From NCBI RefSeq assembly GCF_041886205.1, contig NZ_CP169029.1: a DNA stretch of 64,000 nucleotides. One strand, 5' to 3'. Positions within the stretch are counted from its first letter, which is position 1; every line of letters begins with the position of its first letter. The notes under the pieces were generated by a model. The model ran no database searches. It had not been told where the DNA came from and saw only the letters and a program-made list of their open reading frames with translations. Both the position numbers and the translations under genes were made by a program. Below, piece by piece: positions 1,060 through 57,684 of the stretch. The DNA comes from Escherichia coli (GTDB taxonomy: Bacteria > Pseudomonadota > Gammaproteobacteria > Enterobacterales > Enterobacteriaceae).

Positions 1060-3303
1060 TTAGAAACGGAAGGTTGCGGTTGCAACGACCTGACGTTCTG
1101 CGCCCCAGAAGCAGCCATAAGTGTTAAAGCAGCTGGCGACGTATTCACGATCGAACAGGTTGTTGACATGCAGCGCCACGTTGGAGCCCGCCATGCCGAC
1201 TCGCGCCAGATCATAACGCACTAACGCATCCACGACCGTATAACTTCCCACTTTAAAGGAGTTAGCCGGATCACCATAGCTGGAGCCAGTATAACGACCA
1301 CCGGTGCCCAGCGTCAGACCTGAAAGTGGACCGTCAAAGAAGGTATAGTCAGCCCACAGCGAAGCCATGTGTTTTGGCACCTGTGCAGGCGTATTTCCTT
1401 TGTAGTTGGTGTCAGTGGTGTATTCCGCGTCGGTGTAGGTGTAAGAACCGACTACGTTAACACTCGCCGATAGTGCCGCTTTCGCTTCCAGCTCTACGCC
1501 ACGCGCACGAATCTCACCGCCTTCAACCGAGAAGAAGGAACCCTCAGGGTCCGCCATCAGGTTGTTGGTTTTAGTGAGATTATACACGGCACCAGTAACT
1601 ACAATCGGACGATCTTCCGGTACATATTTCACACCGACTTCATACTGCTTACCCTTAGACGGTGCGAAAATATTACCATCCTTCCCAACTTGCGAAGAAG
1701 GTTCAAACGATTCGCTATAGCTAAAGTAAGGTGTTACGCCATTATCAAACAGGTAGTTAACACCACCACGCCAGGTAAACTGTTTGTCATCACGTTTATC
1801 GGTCGTCCCGGCAACGCGGTTAAGAGATTCTTGATCTGCCCAGTCATAACGACCGCCCAGGGTTACCAGCACTTTATCCCACTGCGCCTGATCCTGAACA
1901 TAAACGCCCGTTTGTTTCTGTTTATTCAGAATGCGGTAAGGGCCGGAGTTTGCCGGATCTTTGGCATTGAAGTCGAAATCGGTATTCACCGGATTGTACA
2001 GATTGAGCAGTGGCACAGAGTCGTCGTAACCAAACCAGGCGTTGATGTCATTACGCATACGCATAAAGTCGACACCGGTCAACAGGGTGTGGTCGATATC
2101 GCCAGTGGCAAACTTGCTCTGCAACTGGGTATCAACGGAGAAGTTTTGCAGCTTCTCATCATCAACGACGTATTTACGTGCCAGATAATGGCCTTTATCC
2201 GCTGGCGCTAATGCCGCACACTGTTTGCTGTAAGCATTCGCCGGATCGGAGCAGACGCCGTAACCATAAACGCTGTTTTGCGAGGTTTTGTTTTCAGCAA
2301 AGCGCAGGTTCTGACGCACAGTAAAGGTGTCGTTAAATTCGTGATCGAAGCTGTAGCCGACCATCTTCTCATTACGAGAATAGGTGTTGTTCTTCGCCCC
2401 TTCATTAAAGTCTGTCGGCAGACGCTTACCGTTCGGCAGCGGCTCAACGGTTCCCTCTTTCGGCAACCAGCCGTAATAACCGGTTTCCGGCTCGTTCTGG
2501 AAGTAAGAAAGGAAGGTGAAATTGGTTTTATCATCCGGACGCCAGGTGAACGCCGGTGCAATAGCATAACGCTGCTCTTCTGACCCTTTCTGCTGGGCAT
2601 TGGCAGAACGCGCAAGACCGGTCAGGCGATAAGAGTAAACGCCGTCATCATCCAGCGCATCGCTAAAGTCAAAACCAGTCTGGAACAGGCTGTCAGTACC
2701 GGCTTTAAACTGAACTTCTTTGAGCGGTTCGGTGGTCGGACGCTTGCTGACCATATTCAACAGACCGCCAGGACTACTTTTACCGTAAAGCACGGAAACC
2801 GGGCCACGCATAATTTCAGCGCGTTCCAGCATATACGGATCAATGACCGCATCGTTATAGAAGTTGCCCTGCAACTTCAGGCCATTCAGATAGTTATTCT
2901 GGCTTTGGCCTTCTGCCGCAAAACCGCGAATGATCAGGTGGTCATAGGTGTTGGATGCGCCACGCGTACCAACAGAGACACCCGGCGTGTAGCTAAGCGC
3001 TTCTTTTACCGACTTCGGCTGATGCAGCGCCATCTCTTCGGCGGTCACAACAGAAATAGACTGTGGCACTTTTTGAATCGGCGTATCGGTTTTAGTGCCG
3101 GTAGCTGACTGTCGCGCCGCAATAGTTGCAGCAGGCCCCCATGCGCTTTCTTGCGGCGCAGGTGCAGCGGTAACGGTGATAGTGTCTTCTTTCGGTTCAA
3201 CCGCTGCCTGTGCATAAACAGACATGCCGCTAACCGCTGTGGCTACTACAACTGCGATTTTACGCAGTGAGTGTTTTGGCTGAGCAGTTTTGGAACGCGC
3301 CAT
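1060..3303 (-). CDS. fhuA: Ferrichrome outer-membrane TonB-dependent receptor FhuA
   Basis: 747-aa ORF with signal peptide, TonB box region and C-terminal beta-barrel ending ATFRF; length matches FhuA. Confidence 0.96.
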   Translation of the reverse strand: MARSKTAQPKHSLRKIAVVVATAVSGMSVYAQAAVEPKEDTITVTAAPAPQESAWGPAATIAARQSATGTKTDTPIQKVPQSISVVTAEEMALHQPKSVKEALSYTPGVSVGTRGASNTYDHLIIRGFAAEGQSQNNYLNGLKLQGNFYNDAVIDPYMLERAEIMRGPVSVLYGKSSPGGLLNMVSKRPTTEPLKEVQFKAGTDSLFQTGFDFSDALDDDGVYSYRLTGLARSANAQQKGSEEQRYAIAPAFTWRPDDKTNFTFLSYFQNEPETGYYGWLPKEGTVEPLPNGKRLPTDFNEGAKNNTYSRNEKMVGYSFDHEFNDTFTVRQNLRFAENKTSQNSVYGYGVCSDPANAYSKQCAALAPADKGHYLARKYVVDDEKLQNFSVDTQLQSKFATGDIDHTLLTGVDFMRMRNDINAWFGYDDSVPLLNLYNPVNTDFDFNAKDPANSGPYRILNKQKQTGVYVQDQAQWDKVLVTLGGRYDWADQESLNRVAGTTDKRDDKQFTWRGGVNYLFDNGVTPYFSYSESFEPSSQVGKDGNIFAPSKGKQYEVGVKYVPEDRPIVVTGAVYNLTKTNNLMADPEGSFFSVEGGEIRARGVELEAKAALSASVNVVGSYTYTDAEYTTDTNYKGNTPAQVPKHMASLWADYTFFDGPLSGLTLGTGGRYTGSSYGDPANSFKVGSYTVVDALVRYDLARVGMAGSNVALHVNNLFDREYVASCFNTYGCFWGAERQVVATATFRF

Positions 3304-3339
3304 TGGTATATCTCTGATGTAAAGTGAATGATAACGTAA

Positions 3340-3372
3340 ACGAGAATGATTATTATAAAGATAAGATAATAT
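3340..3372 (-). promoter_or_regulatory. Putative Fur box in fhuA promoter region
   Basis: Minus-strand reading contains ATAATAATCATTCTC, close to the Fur consensus GATAATGATAATCATTATC, about 40-70 bp upstream of the fhuA start. Confidence 0.5.
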
Positions 3373-3481
3373 TCGAAACGCTGGCGGGTTCGCAAGCGGT
3401 ACGCAATCTGAGCGTTCCTGAAGGGTTAATAAACAACCAGATGAAAAGAAAGGGTTAATACTTTGGGTGGGATGTTATTTT

Positions 3482-3506
3482 ACCGGATGGCAACTCGCCA
3501 TCCGGT
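3482..3506. other. Perfect 10-bp stem hairpin (accggatggc/gccatccggt) just downstream of mrcB; possible terminator but lacks a clear T-run
   Basis: Inverted repeat read directly from sequence. Confidence 0.3.
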
Positions 3507-3522
3507 ATTTCACGCTTAGACG

Positions 3523-6057
3523 TTAATTACTACCAAACATATCTTTAATCCAACCGGCTACACCGTCGCTGTCTTTCTGCTCTTGCTGAGCAGGTTGCTG
3601 TTGCGGCTGTTGCTGCGGCTGAGAAGACTGATCAAACGGATTGCTTGACGGCTGCTGCTGCATCTCACTCTGCTGGCACAGCGATTGCGGATCGCTGGTC
3701 CAGACCGGCAAGACACGCATGCCACCGCTGCAAACAAAGTTGCCGTCGTAGTCCACGCCCATATCTGCAATATCTTCTGGCGGAACAAGATTCAGCGGTG
3801 TTGGCGTCTGGTTAGCCAGATAACGCTGATAAATCGACATTGCCCCGCTGGCTCCATACAGTTTGGTCGGCTGGTTGTTATCACGGCCTACCCAGGTGAT
3901 GGTCACCGTGCTGCCGTCAATGCCCGCAAACCAGGTATCTACGTTATTGTTAGTAGTCCCTGTTTTCCCTGCCAGATGCAGGTTCGGGTATTTCGCCCCA
4001 AGCTGACGACCCGTACCGCGTTGTACCACCTGCTGCATGGTCCATAGTGTCAGATACGCCGCCTGCGCCGGAACAGCGCGTTCCGCCTGCGGGAAGCTCT
4101 GATACAGCACTTTGCCATCTTCCGCGATTACCGAACGCAGCGCAGAAAGCGGTGCACGGTTACCGCCGCTGGCGATGGTCTGGAATGCCTGCGCCACTTC
4201 GATTGGCGTTAAGTTCAACGCCCCCAGCAGCATCGCCGGAACCGGATGCAGCTGATCTTTCGGCACGCCCAGTTTGATCCAGGTCTCCGTAACCGCAGGC
4301 AGCCCCAGTGCCATCCCCAGATTTACCGTCGGCACGTTCATCGAACGGGTCAACGCATCCACCAGCATCACTCTGCCACTTTCGCTATAACGACGATCAT
4401 CGTTCTGCGGTGACCAGACCTGGCCATTCGGCTGACGCAGCGCGATTGGCGCATCCGCAATCCACGTGTTCAGGCGATAGATTTTCGGCTGGCTTAAGGC
4501 AGTCAGATAAGTCGCTGGTTTTGCAAGGGAACCAATCGAACGACGCGCCTGCATCGCACGGTTGTAGCCCGCAAACTGCGGCTCAGAACCTCCGACCATC
4601 GCACGAACTTCACCACTAAAGCGGTCGACGACCACAATCGCGGTTTCCAGATCGCTCAGCTTACGCTGTTTCTTCAGTGCCGGAATGCCTTCCACGGCGG
4701 CTTTTTCTGCCGCGTCCTGGGCCACCGAGTCAAAGGTAGTGAAGATCTTCACGCCGGACAGATCTTTTACCTTATCGCCTAATTTCTCCTGCAACTCCTG
4801 ACGCACCAGTTGCATAAAGGCTGGCTGTGGAGAGATTACCCCACCGCGCGGCTGTACGCCCAGAGGACGCGCGCTGAGCATTTCATACAGTTCACCATCG
4901 ATAATCTGCTGTTGTTGTAGCAAACGCAGCACCAGATTACGTCGCTCCAGCGCCAGTTTCGGGTTACGCCACGGGTTGTAGATGGACGCCCCTTTCACCA
5001 TGCCAACTAACAGCGCCTGCTGGTCAAGGCTCAACTCTTCTACCGGGCGACCAAAGTAGTACAGGCTCGCCAGCGGGAAGCCACGAATTTCGTTGTCGCC
5101 GCTCTGACCGAGATACACCTCATTCATATACAGCTCAAGAATGCGATCTTTGCTGTAACGCGCATCCATGATCAACGCCATATAGGCTTCGTTCGCTTTA
5201 CGCCAGTAAGAGCGCTCGCTGGAGAGGAACAGGTTTTTCACCAGCTGTTGCGTCAGCGTACTCGCACCCTGCACCGTGCGACCTGCGGTCAGGTTTGCCA
5301 GCACCGCACGTCCGATGGAGTAGAGACTGATTCCATCATGCTCGTAGAAATGGCGGTCTTCTGTCGCCAGCAAAGTATCCACCAGCAAATCCGGGAAACC
5401 ACTGCGCGGCACAAACAAACGCTGCTCACCGTTTGGTGAGGAGATCATGGTGATCAGGCGCGGATCAAGACGGAAGAAACCGAACTGACGGTTGTTCTCC
5501 ATATTGACGATCGTCGCCAGATGATCGCCATCAAAGGTCAGACGCGCGCGCACCTGTCCTTCTTTACTGTCCGGGAAATCAAACGGACGGCGAATCATCT
5601 CAATGCTGTTGGCCTGCACGGTAAATTCGCCAGGACGGGTCATTTTTGACACCTGACGATACTGGGTTGCCTCCAGCAGCTTCACCATCTCGTTCTTGCT
5701 GATGGTCATGTCTGGCTCAAGGTTGACCATTCGGCCATAAACTGCCGCAGGCAGTTGCCAGACCTTGCCATCAATACGGCTGCGAATTTTTTGATCGAGA
5801 TAAACGCCGTAAATGGCGATCAGCACGGCAAAAACGATAGCCAGTTTTAACAGCAGCCATAGCCAGCCGCGTTTGCCACGAGGCTTACGCCCTTTGCCTT
5901 TGCCCTTACCTTTGCGCGGCATCGGTTCTTCATCCTCATAGTCATCATAATCGTCGTAATCATCGTCATCTTCGTAACGACGACGGCTTACCTTTTGTTT
6001 GACCGGACGCGTCGGTTTCCCTTTGCGTCCAATTGGCTCGCGGTCATTCCCGGCCAT
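3523..6057 (-). CDS. mrcB: Penicillin-binding protein 1B (bifunctional glycosyltransferase/transpeptidase)
   Basis: ORF 3523..6072; start refined to [10 protein letters not shown] (cat at 6055-6057); acidic [15 protein letters not shown] tract then TM segment; 844 aa. Confidence 0.95.
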
Positions 6058-6252: not shown

Positions 6253-8682
6253 TTACGAATACTTTTTCGTCCGTCGCGTCGGTGCCGTGTTTGCCGGGTC
6301 GTCCGGCCAGACATGTTTGGGATAACGCCCTTTCATCTCTTTTTGCACCTCACGGTACGCTCCTTTCCAGAAGGCGCTCAAATCTCGTGTGATTTGTAAT
6401 GGCCTTTGGGCAGGGGAAAGCAACTCCAGCACCAGCGGCACGCGCCCCTGGGCGATCGTCGGATTGGTGGCCTCACCAAACATCTCCTGCATTCTCACCG
6501 CCAGCGCGGGCGGGTTATCTTCATGATAACGAATGGCGATCCGGCTTCCCGTCGGCACAGTGTAATGCGCAGGCAATTCACTATCCAGACGTTGCTGCAT
6601 TCCCCAATCAAGTAATCCGCGTAGTGCCTGATAAATGTCGAGTGATTTCAGGCCGCGTAGTGAATGCACGCCGGTCATATGTGGCAGCAGCCACGTTTCC
6701 AGCGTCGCCAACAAACTTTCATTATCAACCGCAGGCCAGTCATATTCCGGCAACCACTTTGCGGCGCATAACAAACGCAAGCGTAGCTGTTCCGCTTCCG
6801 CCGTCCAGTTGAGCACGCTTAAACCTTTATCACTAATGCCGTTAAGCATCGCCTGATGCAACTCGTCTTCTGACGGTTTCGCCAGTGGCTGCACTTTCAC
6901 CGTCAGCTGACCGATTTGCAGCCGACGCCAGGCTTTCAGCGTACCTTGCGCGTCATCCCACTCCACAGTGTCAGACTGCTGTACCAGCTGCGGGCAGCGT
7001 TGTACTAACTCATCAATATCGACCGGCAGCGCCAGTAAAATCCGCGCATCCGGCGAGGCGCTGCCCTGCAATAATAACGGTGCGATCAACCATTCGTGGC
7101 GGCTTAGCGCATCGTCGGCATCGAGCATCGCTCCCATGCCGTTTGCCAGTTGATAGCGTCCATCTTGCCCACGGCGATGAGCAATGCGATCGGCAAACGC
7201 CCCGGCAAGTAGCGGCGCGATAAGCGAACTGTCTGCCTCTCCGCCGCGTACGTTTAAGCGTTTTAACAGTTGCTGACTACGTTGCTGCCAGGCTGGTTGA
7301 TTGCGCGAAAACGCCACGCCCAGGTCACTATTGCCCATCCGTGGCGGCTCTTCGAGAATGGCGGCAATTTTTGCCGCGGTAGCAGCTTCGTCGTCGTTCT
7401 TTGCGCTAACCAGCATTGCCGCTAAACGCGGATCGTTACCCAGCGCTGCCATTTTTTGCCCCTGCGCACTAAGCCGTTCACCGTCCAGCGCCCCCAGCAT
7501 CTTTAACAGGCGTTTCGCGGCCAGTAAATTCACTGCTGGCGGTTGATCCAGCCAGCTCATCTGCGCCGGATCGCTGCATCCCCATTGCAGTAATTCCATC
7601 AGCAAACCGGAAAGATCGCTTTGTAAGATCTCCGGTTCACTTTGCGCGGCAGCGCGTTCTGCTTGTTCTTTGGCGATTAAATGCAGGCTGATACCCGGCT
7701 CCAGACGCCCGGCGCGCCCGGCACGCTGCGTCATCGACGCCTGACTGATTCGCTGAGTAATCAACCGCGTAAGCCCTGTTCGCGGATCAAAACGCGCCAC
7801 CCTTTCCTGGGCACAATCCACCACCAGACGAATACCTTCGATGGTTAAACTGGTTTCAGCAATATTGGTCGCCAGCACCACTTTGCGCATCCCTTGCGGT
7901 GCCGGAAGGATCGCTTTTCGCTGATCGTTCAGCGACAACGCGCCATACAGCGGGCAGAGCAACACATCACTGCCGATACGCGAAGCCAGTTGTTCCTGCA
8001 CACGCTGAATTTCTCCGACGCCTGGTAAAAATAACAGTAATGATCCACTTTCCTGACGCAGCATTTCAGCGGTGGCTACCGCAACGGCTTCGTCAAAACG
8101 CTGATGCGCGGGCAGCGGTAAATAACGGCGTTCAACCGGAAACGAGCGCCCTTCTGAGATGACGACGGGCGCTTCTGGTAGCATTTGTTGCAAGCGGTCG
8201 TTGTCCAGCGTAGCCGACATAATCAGCAGTTTAAGGTCATCACGCAGACCTTGTTGCACATCGAGTAACAGCGCCAACGCCAAATCCGCCTGCAAGCTAC
8301 GCTCATGAAATTCATCAAGGATCACCAATCCAACACCGCTCAACTCCGGGTCACGCTGGATCATCCGCGTCAGCACGCCTTCGGTAACTACTTCCAGGCG
8401 GGTATTCGGCCCGACGCAGTTTTGCGCACGCATCCGGTAGCCAACGGTATCGCCTGGCTTTTCGTTAAGCAGCTCCGCCAGCCGTTGCGCGACGTTACGC
8501 GCCGCCAGACGACGCGGCTCCAGCAGGATAATTTTCCCGTTAATGCCGGGATGCGCCAGCAGTTGCAGCGGCAGCCAGGTTGATTTCCCGGCCCCGGTCG
8601 GCGCACTTAATAATACCTGCGGCGCATAATCGAGAGCGGTAAGTAATTCAGGTAAGACGGCAGCAACGGGCAACGACGACAC
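6253..8682 (-). CDS. hrpB: ATP-dependent DEAH-box RNA helicase HrpB
   Basis: ORF 6253..8727; start refined to GTG at 8680-8682 giving MSSLPVAAVLPELL and 809 aa; helicase motifs APTGAGKST, DEFH, SATL. Confidence 0.92.
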   Translation of the reverse strand: MSSLPVAAVLPELLTALDYAPQVLLSAPTGAGKSTWLPLQLLAHPGINGKIILLEPRRLAARNVAQRLAELLNEKPGDTVGYRMRAQNCVGPNTRLEVVTEGVLTRMIQRDPELSGVGLVILDEFHERSLQADLALALLLDVQQGLRDDLKLLIMSATLDNDRLQQMLPEAPVVISEGRSFPVERRYLPLPAHQRFDEAVAVATAEMLRQESGSLLLFLPGVGEIQRVQEQLASRIGSDVLLCPLYGALSLNDQRKAILPAPQGMRKVVLATNIAETSLTIEGIRLVVDCAQERVARFDPRTGLTRLITQRISQASMTQRAGRAGRLEPGISLHLIAKEQAERAAAQSEPEILQSDLSGLLMELLQWGCSDPAQMSWLDQPPAVNLLAAKRLLKMLGALDGERLSAQGQKMAALGNDPRLAAMLVSAKNDDEAATAAKIAAILEEPPRMGNSDLGVAFSRNQPAWQQRSQQLLKRLNVRGGEADSSLIAPLLAGAFADRIAHRRGQDGRYQLANGMGAMLDADDALSRHEWLIAPLLLQGSASPDARILLALPVDIDELVQRCPQLVQQSDTVEWDDAQGTLKAWRRLQIGQLTVKVQPLAKPSEDELHQAMLNGISDKGLSVLNWTAEAEQLRLRLLCAAKWLPEYDWPAVDNESLLATLETWLLPHMTGVHSLRGLKSLDIYQALRGLLDWGMQQRLDSELPAHYTVPTGSRIAIRYHEDNPPALAVRMQEMFGEATNPTIAQGRVPLVLELLSPAQRPLQITRDLSAFWKGAYREVQKEMKGRYPKHVWPDDPANTAPTRRTKKYS

Positions 8683-8755
8683 AAAACGCTCCAGAGGGTT
8701 AACATTCTTCGCGCCACATTGTAGCATCGCGGTAATTCATAACCGAGTGCCTCAC

Positions 8756-43135: not shown

Positions 43136-43316
43136 ATCCATAGGGTATGTGAAGTAATACCCTAACCACCACCGGGTCGTTCTATCCGTCGGTATTTTAC
43201 AAAATTGTTAACAATTTTTAAACAACAAACGGCAACCGATTTGTCTATTCGCTAATAACCTCAATACATTCATGAGATTACCAGAAAAAAGCCGGCCGTT
43301 TGGCCGGCTCTTTTAC

Positions 43317-45209
43317 TTACATCACCAGGCGGCGAATGTCAGACAGCGTGTTGTTAATGATGGTAATGAAACGGGCACCATCAGCACCGTCGATCACGCG
43401 GTGGTCGAAGGAGAGAGAAATCGGCAGCATCAGACGCGGCACGAACTCTTTACCATTCCACACCGGCTCCATCGCGGACTTGGAAACGCCGAGGATAGCC
43501 ACTTCCGGCGCGTTCACAATCGGCGCGAAGTGGGTAGTACCCAGGCCGCCGATGCTGGAGATGGTGAAGCAACCGCCCTGCATTTCGCCCGCAGTCAGCT
43601 TACCGTCACGCGCTTTCTTAGAAATAGTCATCAGCTCGCGAGACAGCTCGATGATGCCTTTCTTGTTGACGTCTTTGAATACCGGAACAACCAGACCGTT
43701 CGGGGTATCCACCGCCACACCGATGTTGATGTACTTCTTCAGGGTCAGACGCTGACCGTCTTCCGACAGCGAACTGTTGAAGCGAGGCATCTGCTCAAGA
43801 GCTGCAGCAACGGCTTTCATGATGAAGACAACCGGGGTTATCTTCACATCCAGCTTACGTTTCGCCGCTTCTTCGTTCTGCTGTTTACGGAACGCTTCCA
43901 GCTCGGTGATATCGGTTTTGTCGAAGTGAGTAACATGCGGGATCATCACCCAGTTACGGCTCAGGTTCGCCCCAGAGATTTTCTGGATACGGCCCAGTTC
44001 CACTTCTTCGATTTCACCAAACTTGCTAAAGTCCACCTTCGGCCACGGCAGCATGCCTGGGATACCGCCGCCAGTCGCCGCCGGAGCTGCTTCTGCACGT
44101 TTGATAGCTTCTTTCACGTAAGCCTGAACGTCTTCGCGCAGGATACGACCTTTACGGCCAGTGCCCTTCACTTTCGCCAGGTTAACGCCAAACTCGCGTG
44201 CCAGACGGCGGATCAGCGGAGTCGCGTGAACGTAAGCGTCGTTTTCAGCAAATTCAGATTTGCCTTCCGCTTTTGCAGCCGGAGCTGCTGCCGGGGCTTC
44301 AGCTTTTGCTGCCGGAGCCGGCGCTGCCGCTTCCTGTTTCGCAGGAGCTGCAGCAGGCGCTGCGCCTTCAACTTCGAAGATCATAATCAGCGAACCAGTT
44401 TTCACTTTATCGCCAACGTTGACTTTCAGTTCCTTCACGACGCCTGCAAACGGAGCCGGAACTTCCATAGACGCTTTATCGCCTTCTACGGTGATCAGTG
44501 ACTGTTCAGCGGCAACTTTGTCGCCCACTTTCACCATCACTTCGGTGACTTCAACTTCGTCACCGCCGATATCCGGAACGTTAACTTCTTTCACGCCAGC
44601 TGCTGGTGCAGGAGCCGCTGCCGGAGCCGCTTCCTGTTTAGCCGCCGGAGCTGCCGCGCCTGCTTCACCCGCGACTTCGAAGACCATAATCAGCGAGCCG
44701 GTAGACACTTTGTCACCCACGTTCACTTTGATCTCTTTCACGGTGCCAGCAAACGGAGCCGGAACTTCCATAGAAGCCTTGTCGCCTTCTACGGTGATCA
44801 GCGACTGTTCAGCTTCAACTTTATCGCCAACTTTCACCAGGATTTCGGTCACTTCAACTTCGTCGCTGCCGATATCCGGAACGTTAACGTCTTTTGCCGC
44901 TGCAGCCGCTGGTGCTGCTGCCGGAGCTGCTTCTTTCTTCTCTTCTGCCTGAGCAGGTGCAGCGTCTGCTGCACCGTCGGCGGAATCGAAAATCATAATC
45001 AGTGCGCCGGTCTGGGTTTTATCGCCAACAGAGACTTTGATCTCTTTAACAATACCCGCCTGCGGAGACGGAACTTCCATAGAGGCTTTGTCGCCTTCTA
45101 CGGTGATCAGCGACTGTTCGGCTTCAACTTTGTCGCCCACTTTGACCAGGATCTCGGTGATTTCAACTTCATCAGCCCCGATGTCCGGTACTTTGATTTC
45201 GATAGCCAT
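43317..45209 (-). CDS. aceF: Pyruvate dehydrogenase E2 (dihydrolipoamide acetyltransferase) with three lipoyl domains
   Basis: 630-aa ORF; three repeated lipoyl domains (…[10 protein letters not shown]…) separated by Ala/Pro-rich linkers; catalytic DHRxxDG. Confidence 0.96.
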
Positions 45210-45223
45210 TATTCTTTTACCTC

Positions 45224-57460: not shown

Positions 57461-57684
57461 GTGCGGATTCCTGGGGTTAATGGCTATAAGGGTAAGAGCG
57501 CAACTCCAGTGACGCTATCATACGCACTAATCAATGCGGCGCAAGACTGCGAAATTGTCTTTTTTTACGCTACAATCCCATAAATTTACCTGGTAAATAG
57601 TGAGCGAACGTTTCATCAATTTCGCTTTCGTGCACTCATTTTTAACGTTTTGATAATCATGATGAATTCCCGGGAATATAAATT

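Follow-up and report, generated by a model that had tools for sequence, protein, structure and literature searches.

The sequence immediately upstream of fhuA in the stretch of DNA analysed here is almost certainly the Fur operator of the Escherichia coli fhuACDB operon. This operator is real, conserved, and already known and experimentally characterised, and is not new. That Fur controls fhuA has stood in textbooks for decades. Its confirmation is a useful positive control, as it indicates that a reading of raw sequence can recognise a real operator. The additions made here are the operator span (3333–3363), its position at +3 to +21, a discrepancy over the transcription start site with a study of the regulator HypT, and the assignment of a nearby hairpin to mrcB.

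The fhuA operator and its identity with the known Fur site

The window, by which we mean the whole 64,000-nucleotide stretch, is E. coli chromosome, and strain ATCC 8739 is identical to it across all 401 bases compared. The 331 bases around the Fur box are 100% identical to many RefSeq genomes, including ATCC 8739, and in all of these matches the flanking genes are annotated as mrcB and fhuA (Table 1). K-12 shares 97.9% identity over the same bases. It equals the window base for base over 3407..3297, from the -35 box through the fhuA ATG, and departs from the window strain at only a few bases at about 3462–3469, further upstream than the operator. The product of fhuA is identified by the NCBIfam equivalog NF007465, with 1474 bits against a cut-off of 803. 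The intergenic region between mrcB and fhuA is 219 bp long and has an A+T content of 59%, compared with 48% in the window; its minus-strand sequence includes TTGCGAACCCGCCAGCGTTTCGAATATTATCTTATCTTTATAATAATCATTCTCGTTTACGTTATCATTCACTTTACATCAGAGATATACCAATG.

Table 1. Features around the fhuA promoter, in window coordinates. Identity is identity to the window in a 75-sequence alignment of orthologous promoters.
Feature	Position	Strand	Identity	Basis
hrpB	8727..6253	minus
mrcB, PBP1b, 844 aa; upstream gene, same strand as fhuA	6057..3523	minus		ORF; NCBIfam NF007061, 1732 bits; RefSeq annotation
Hairpin, perfect 11-bp stem, 5-nt loop	3481..3507 (arms 3481–3491, 3497–3507)	minus		Repeat search, folding
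AACCCTTTCTTTTCA, counterpart of upstream HypT footprint (AACCCTTCCTTTTCA in Salmonella), 1 base differs	3456..3442	minus
-35 hexamer TTGCGA (TTGCTA in many relatives)	3395..3390	minus		Promoter consensus scan
-10 hexamer TATTAT	3371..3366	minus	0.98	Promoter consensus scan; 18-nt spacer to -35
Spacer, -10 to box, 8 bp	3365..3358		0.33
Full Fur operator cluster, 31 bp	3333..3363			Primary site plus overlapping 6-bp-offset sites, local matrix profile
fhuA transcription start (+1)	3359	minus		Cappable-seq, K-12 167428 (+), score 31.4
fhuA 5′ untranslated leader, 56 nt, includes Fur box	3304..3359	minus		Transcription start to ATG
Primary Fur site TATAATAATCATTCTCGTT, 19-bp 9-1-9 inverted repeat, centre 3348	3357..3339	read on minus	0.89	Independent 15-site matrix, 21.3 bits
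TTACGTTATCATTCA block, identical to downstream HypT footprint of Salmonella fhuA promoter	3339..3325	minus	0.97	Footprint sequence of Jo et al., 2019
fhuA, ferrichrome outer-membrane transporter, 747 aa; first of fhuACDB	3303..1060	minus		ORF; RefSeq annotation under 100%-identical DNA
fhuC	downstream of fhuA	minus

The box is most readily seen as the 15-mer ATAATAATCATTCTC on the minus strand at 3356..3342, which lies 39–53 nt upstream of the fhuA ATG (3303) and falls within the 19-bp inverted repeat of Table 1. We scored it with a Fur matrix constructed from 15 footprinted or gel-shifted K-12 sites, with fhuA excluded and the counts symmetrised. For 12 of these sites, the centres listed in Chen et al. 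(2007; Tables 3 and 4) were mapped to NC_000913.3 via the gene-start offsets of that paper, while the other three were set at the best position within the fepB, fur, and tonB footprints. The matrix consensus is AATGATAATAATTATCATT. At 21.3 bits, the 19-mer ranks first among the ~64,000 positions of the window. In leave-one-out scoring, the training sites themselves have a mean of 20.8 bits (range 8.4–28.2), so that the fhuA box is typical of verified sites. The first-pass annotation had pointed to a likeness to the Fur consensus on the minus strand and had proposed a matrix scan as its check; the likeness is borne out at the level of verified sites, under a matrix that had not seen fhuA.

Matches of this strength are rarely expected by chance. 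Exact score statistics give an expectation of 0.0025 per 64 kb at the composition of the window and 0.0001 per 219 bp at that of the intergenic region. A score of 21.3 bits was reached by 2 of 200 versions of the window shuffled by dinucleotide, and by none of 2000 shuffled versions of the intergenic region. The runner-up in the window, at 15.3 bits, is located within aceF (44985–45003); with ~0.13 chance matches of at least 15.3 bits expected per 64 kb, this match is mildly unexpected. The other next-best scores are found in the divergent guaC–hofC intergenic region (13.3 bits, 57649–57667), in the aceF–lpd intergenic region (13.2 bits, 43204–43222), and at the aceE–aceF junction (11.3 bits, 45198–45216).

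Two secondary Fur sites, each offset by exactly 6 bp, flank the primary one, with centres at 3354 (9.4 bits) and 3342 (2.8 bits). The operator had earlier been placed at 3340–3372. An operator is indeed present there, but this span extends ~8 bp beyond it on the upstream side and includes the -10 hexamer at 3366–3371; the functional span is better given as that of the 31-bp cluster. The same 9-1-9 inverted repeat, in the form AATGATAATNATTATCATT, is found in the classical Fur boxes of fepA–fes, fepD–entS, entC, cirA, fecA, exbB, and fhuF. These siderophore-uptake operators of E. coli also have in common with fhuA the clustering at 6-bp offsets, and are likewise positioned at the core promoter of iron-uptake operons. 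The fhuA operator differs from those of fepA–fes, entC, cirA, and others in that its main site is placed shortly after the mapped start of transcription instead of over the -35 and -10 elements. It agrees with the consensus at 14 of 18 positions, with T, A, C, and G replacing A, G, A, and A at outer positions.

The cluster coincides with one that has already been described. In K-12, the strongest site of the fhuA Fur cluster was placed at position 167439, 45 bp before the ATG, and was listed with 19.5 bits, three walkers (overlapping sites), and a span of 31 bp (Chen et al., 2007, NAR, Table 4). Position 167439 maps to 3348 in the window. The two clusters thus agree in their centre, in having three overlapping sites, and in a span of 31 bp, and their sequences do not differ. 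Fur at 150 nM gel-shifted DNA of this same sequence (Chen et al., 2007). In the literature accessible to us we found no DNase footprint of Fur on fhuA, and the direct in vitro evidence is the gel shift; we found no evidence contradicting Fur binding at the fhuA box.

In vivo, Fur ChIP-exo peaks have been mapped upstream of fhuA in K-12 and W3110 (167456–167466/8) and in strain Crooks, which is ATCC 8739 (3832325–3832337, corresponding to 3319–3331 in the window; Gao et al., 2023). Expression of fhuA, by RNA-seq, increased in Δfur mutants of eight of nine strains, ATCC 8739 among them, and derepression of fhuACDB in Δfur has been published for both K-12 and ATCC 8739 (Gao et al., 2023). In that study the fold-repression of fhuA by Fur in K-12 MG1655 is modest (log2 1.09). 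A PfhuA-lacZ fusion was found to be repressed by Fur (Beauchene et al., 2015). The proposal that the ferrichrome receptor gene is under iron regulation is therefore supported, as the gene is fhuA and both Fur binding and derepression have been published for K-12 and ATCC 8739.

The ChIP-exo intervals sit 8–20 bp downstream of the 19-mer and not on it. The interval 3319–3331, TCATTCACTTTAC, is the second copy of an ATCATTC[T/A]C repeat with a spacing of 18 bp, and this copy also has a good Fur half-site, GTTATCATT. Judging from the position of these peaks, Fur binding may extend downstream of the 19-mer. The K-12 ChIP-exo side peaks P2 and P4, located in mrcB and within fhuA, were considered as additional operators and rejected, as there is no Fur motif beneath them (2.9 bits or less).

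Conservation of the box and promoter

Of 5426 complete E. coli genomes, 5421 contain an 80-bp promoter–operator segment as a single copy, with an identity of at least 99% in 3822 of them, 95–99% in 1537, and 90–95% in 62. We aligned six divergent E. coli alleles, including two with a fimbrial operon upstream. No variation was seen in a stretch that starts with AGCGTTTCGAATA, includes the box, and reaches the leader, other than in a TTATCTT patch situated after the -10 hexamer and ahead of the box. The CTTGC of the -35 region was also invariant in these six alleles, and it is at least 95% conserved across genera.

Beyond E. coli, a single scan of representative genomes with FhuA yielded 78 loci, of which 77 were usable and 75 were aligned. 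They include Escherichia, Salmonella, Citrobacter, Enterobacter, Leclercia, and Lelliottia, as well as Kosakonia, Phytobacter, Buttiauxella, Atlantibacter, Hafnia, and Ewingella. Among the 77 enterobacterial loci, 76 have the orthologous box as their best matrix match within the 300 bp ahead of fhuA; it scores 13.8–22.9 bits, has its centre ~45 bp before the ATG, and follows the pattern [CT]ATAATAAT[AC]ATT[CA]TCGTT or a close variant of it. As read from the alignment, a conserved box beside a variable spacer is a clean phylogenetic footprint (Table 1). The two secondary sites behave differently from each other: the downstream one, at a +6 offset, has a score of more than 0 bits in each of the 75 aligned promoters (median 6.0 bits), whereas the upstream one, which has 9.4 bits here, exceeds 5 bits in only four of the 75.

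Natural variants of the region were also observed. Strain Combat13F7 (L005) has a natural 5-bp deletion, aligned to 3362–3366, that removes one copy of a tandem TTATC. It lies between the -10 hexamer and the Fur box and brings the operator 5 bp closer to the promoter. Some 570 of the 5426 complete E. coli genomes (count 564) carry a divergent allele of the mrcB–fhuA intergenic region. Both of the divergent-allele genomes that were examined have a four-gene chaperone–usher fimbrial operon between mrcB and fhuA, encoding a subunit, a chaperone, an usher, and a 336-aa fimbrial protein [L095 (NZ_CP029576.1), L002, and L003]. This operon stands in place of the hairpin and of the intergenic sequence further upstream, and leaves the -35 hexamer (TTGCGA or TTGCTA), the -10 hexamer, the Fur box, and the leader intact.

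Start site, neighbouring HypT sites and alternative readings of the box

The TTGCGA-18-TATTAT promoter found by the consensus scan is identical to the one given for fhuACDB by Shimada et al. (2014). The sole strong transcription start in the mrcB–fhuA intergenic region, as mapped by Cappable-seq in iron-replete K-12, is 167428 (Ettwiller et al., 2016), and the -10 hexamer ends 7 nt upstream of the corresponding window position, 3359. Counted from this start, the Fur 19-mer occupies +3 to +21 and the cluster -4 to +27. The first-pass annotation had described the box as lying in the AT-rich fhuA promoter. The intergenic region is A+T-rich as described, but the box is located just downstream of the transcription start, and not within or upstream of the core promoter.

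A different start underlies the study of HypT (YjiE), a HOCl-sensing LysR-type repressor, in which the promoter was numbered from a position equivalent to 3345, adopted from the computationally derived promoters of Huerta and Collado-Vides (Jo et al., 2019, PNAS). This lies 14 nt downstream of the Cappable-seq start and makes the TATAAT inside the box (3357..3352) the -10 element. We favour the upstream promoter, TTGCGA/TATTAT, because its CTTGC and TATTAT are conserved, while the in-box TATAAT is CATAAT in most genera and has no -35 partner. As Cappable-seq was done on iron-replete cells, a second fhuA start at ~3345, served by the in-box TATAAT and normally masked by Fur, may be used in derepressed cells.

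Two HypT footprints were shown in Salmonella Typhimurium, with a separate Fur box marked between them (Jo et al., 2019). Both sequences of this operator pair are present in the window, the downstream one unchanged and the upstream one with a single substitution, where they are neighbours of the Fur box and not the box itself. Re-numbered from 3359, they occupy +21 to +35 and -97 to -83, as opposed to +7 to +21 and -111 to -97 in Jo et al. (2019). The Fur ChIP-exo peaks of K-12 and ATCC 8739 (3319–3331) overlap the TTACGTTATCATTCA block. An exact 11-nt direct repeat, TATTAACCCTT, occurs on the minus strand at 3460..3450 and 3431..3421, with its copies 29 bp apart, and a repeat search found no third copy anywhere in the 64 kb. 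Its first copy overlaps the counterpart of the upstream HypT site, and its TTAACCC core is partly conserved across genera.

These features allow a number of other readings of the box. Its likeness to a Fur site could be a chance by-product of an AT-rich promoter in which the TATAAT at 3357..3352 serves as the -10 element. The region is indeed AT-rich, at 59% A+T, and the hexamer inside the box is perfect, with the -10 element and start drawn there by Jo et al. (2019). We nevertheless consider this reading extremely improbable. Even at 70% A+T, only 0.0007 sites of 21.3-bit strength would be expected per 219 bp, and it is the TATTAT at 3371..3366 that serves the mapped start at 3359. In most genera the in-box hexamer reads CATAAT and no usable -35 hexamer lies 15–18 bp upstream of it, and yet the whole palindrome is kept. 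The promoter scan reported no promoter that uses the in-box TATAAT, and Fur itself shifts the fhuA box DNA in vitro. Equally hard to credit is a reading of the conserved block as mainly the operator of another regulator, HypT, with the Fur control of fhuA being indirect. It could draw on the Salmonella footprints, which cover the TTACGTTATCATTCA sequence adjoining the box and a second site ~100 bp upstream, and on the conservation of that block, which at 97% exceeds the 89% of the Fur 19-mer. However, the HypT footprints lie on either side of the 19-mer and are no substitute for it, a separate Fur box was marked in the same study, and direct gel-shift and ChIP-exo data exist for Fur at fhuA. 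The effects of HypT were only about two-fold and required HOCl (Jo et al., 2019), and Fur and HypT are complementary and not alternatives.

As the box lies wholly within the 56-nt 5′ leader, and the leader is strongly conserved, the transcribed box (+3 to +21) could instead work as RNA, either in a leader structure or as a pairing site for a small RNA that affects fhuA translation or stability. This is very unlikely. What is conserved is a palindrome in the DNA of the kind bound by Fur, and pairing by RNA would not require one. The leader folds with only -2.8 kcal/mol (z = +1.1), and 182 of 200 shuffled sequences fold equally well. The reading of the leader as an RNA element was dropped, since its folding is no better than chance. 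An Rfam scan of 3150–3700 (E ≤ 10) returned only chance matches to eukaryotic or unrelated families, the best having E = 2.3, far below gathering scores.

For the Fur operator, the geometry described above suggests the following mode of action. When iron is sufficient, Fe2+-Fur dimers bind the inverted repeat centred on 3348 and the overlapping sites at 6-bp offsets (~3333–3363). This operator DNA lies in the region that RNA polymerase has to cover when it uses the TTGCGA-18-TATTAT promoter. Because Fur would be sitting on DNA that the polymerase requires, open-complex formation or promoter escape would be blocked, and the ferrichrome receptor and its ABC transporter would be repressed. When iron is scarce, Fur would leave and fhuACDB would be transcribed. 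The exact step that is blocked, whether by occlusion or by a roadblock, and the downstream reach of Fur are points that we infer. The HypT-matching sites at 3325–3339 and 3442–3456 would add HOCl-dependent repression. Given that HypT is described in the literature as a HOCl-sensing repressor, the fhuA promoter would then integrate iron and hypochlorite signals.

A more specific version of this scheme is offered tentatively, as possible rather than probable. The published promoter cartoon could be mis-registered, such that, with the start at 3359, Fur would act wholly downstream of the -10 element (+3 to +21), blocking open-complex formation or promoter escape and not covering the -10. The block at 3339..3325, together with the ChIP-exo peak on the second ATCATTC repeat, could then represent a shared site in the leader for the extension of Fur and for HypT.

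The stem-loop at the 3′-end of mrcB

A perfect hairpin had also been noted in the first-pass annotation, at 3482–3506, with its function called unclear. The hairpin is real, with arms that extend over 3481–3507, and its role is reasonably clear, as a stem-loop at the 3′-end of mrcB. It has a GC-rich stem, begins 15 nt past the mrcB stop codon, and folds with -23.2 kcal/mol (z = -5.1). It is found as a single copy in 4855 of 5426 E. coli genomes (median of one place per genome), and the 571 genomes without it correspond approximately in number to the 564 with the divergent allele.

Like Rho-independent terminators, the E. coli hairpin is a GC-rich perfect stem-loop after a stop codon, but it is without a U-tract. 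On the mrcB strand the stem is followed by AAAAUAAC (tail AAAATAACATCC), in which there is no U-tract, and a terminator scan reported the hairpin at 3481–3507 on neither strand. A canonical intrinsic terminator was therefore rejected, the stem-loop being present and the U-tract not. An origin as a REP/BIME element was rejected as well, as the hairpin is single-copy and not a dispersed repeat; the rest of the window has just one loosely similar CCGGATG..CATCCGG hairpin. A short hairpin of like flavour, CCGGATGCAACACATCCGG, is located at 28907–28925.

In most other genera, unrelated sequences at the position of the hairpin form canonical terminators consisting of a hairpin and a T-run, such as AAAACCCGCTTCGGCGGGTTTTTCTTT, while in Salmonella and in some Citrobacter the same place is taken by REP-like GCCGGATAAG...CATCCGGC palindromes. 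REP-like palindromes of the form GCCGGATAAGRCG...CGCCATCCGGC were observed ~180–220 bp upstream of fhuA in Salmonella and Citrobacter (L019, L087, L036, and L047). The supplements of Adams et al. (2021) give no mrcB 3′-end at the hairpin. The position of a stem-loop is conserved here and its sequence is not, a pattern that suggests a 3′-terminal element of the mrcB transcript. On comparative grounds, the most likely role of the hairpin is termination, possibly Rho-assisted, combined with the protection of the mrcB transcript from 3′ exonucleases. By ending or stabilising the mrcB transcript, it would insulate the Fur-controlled fhuA promoter from read-through.
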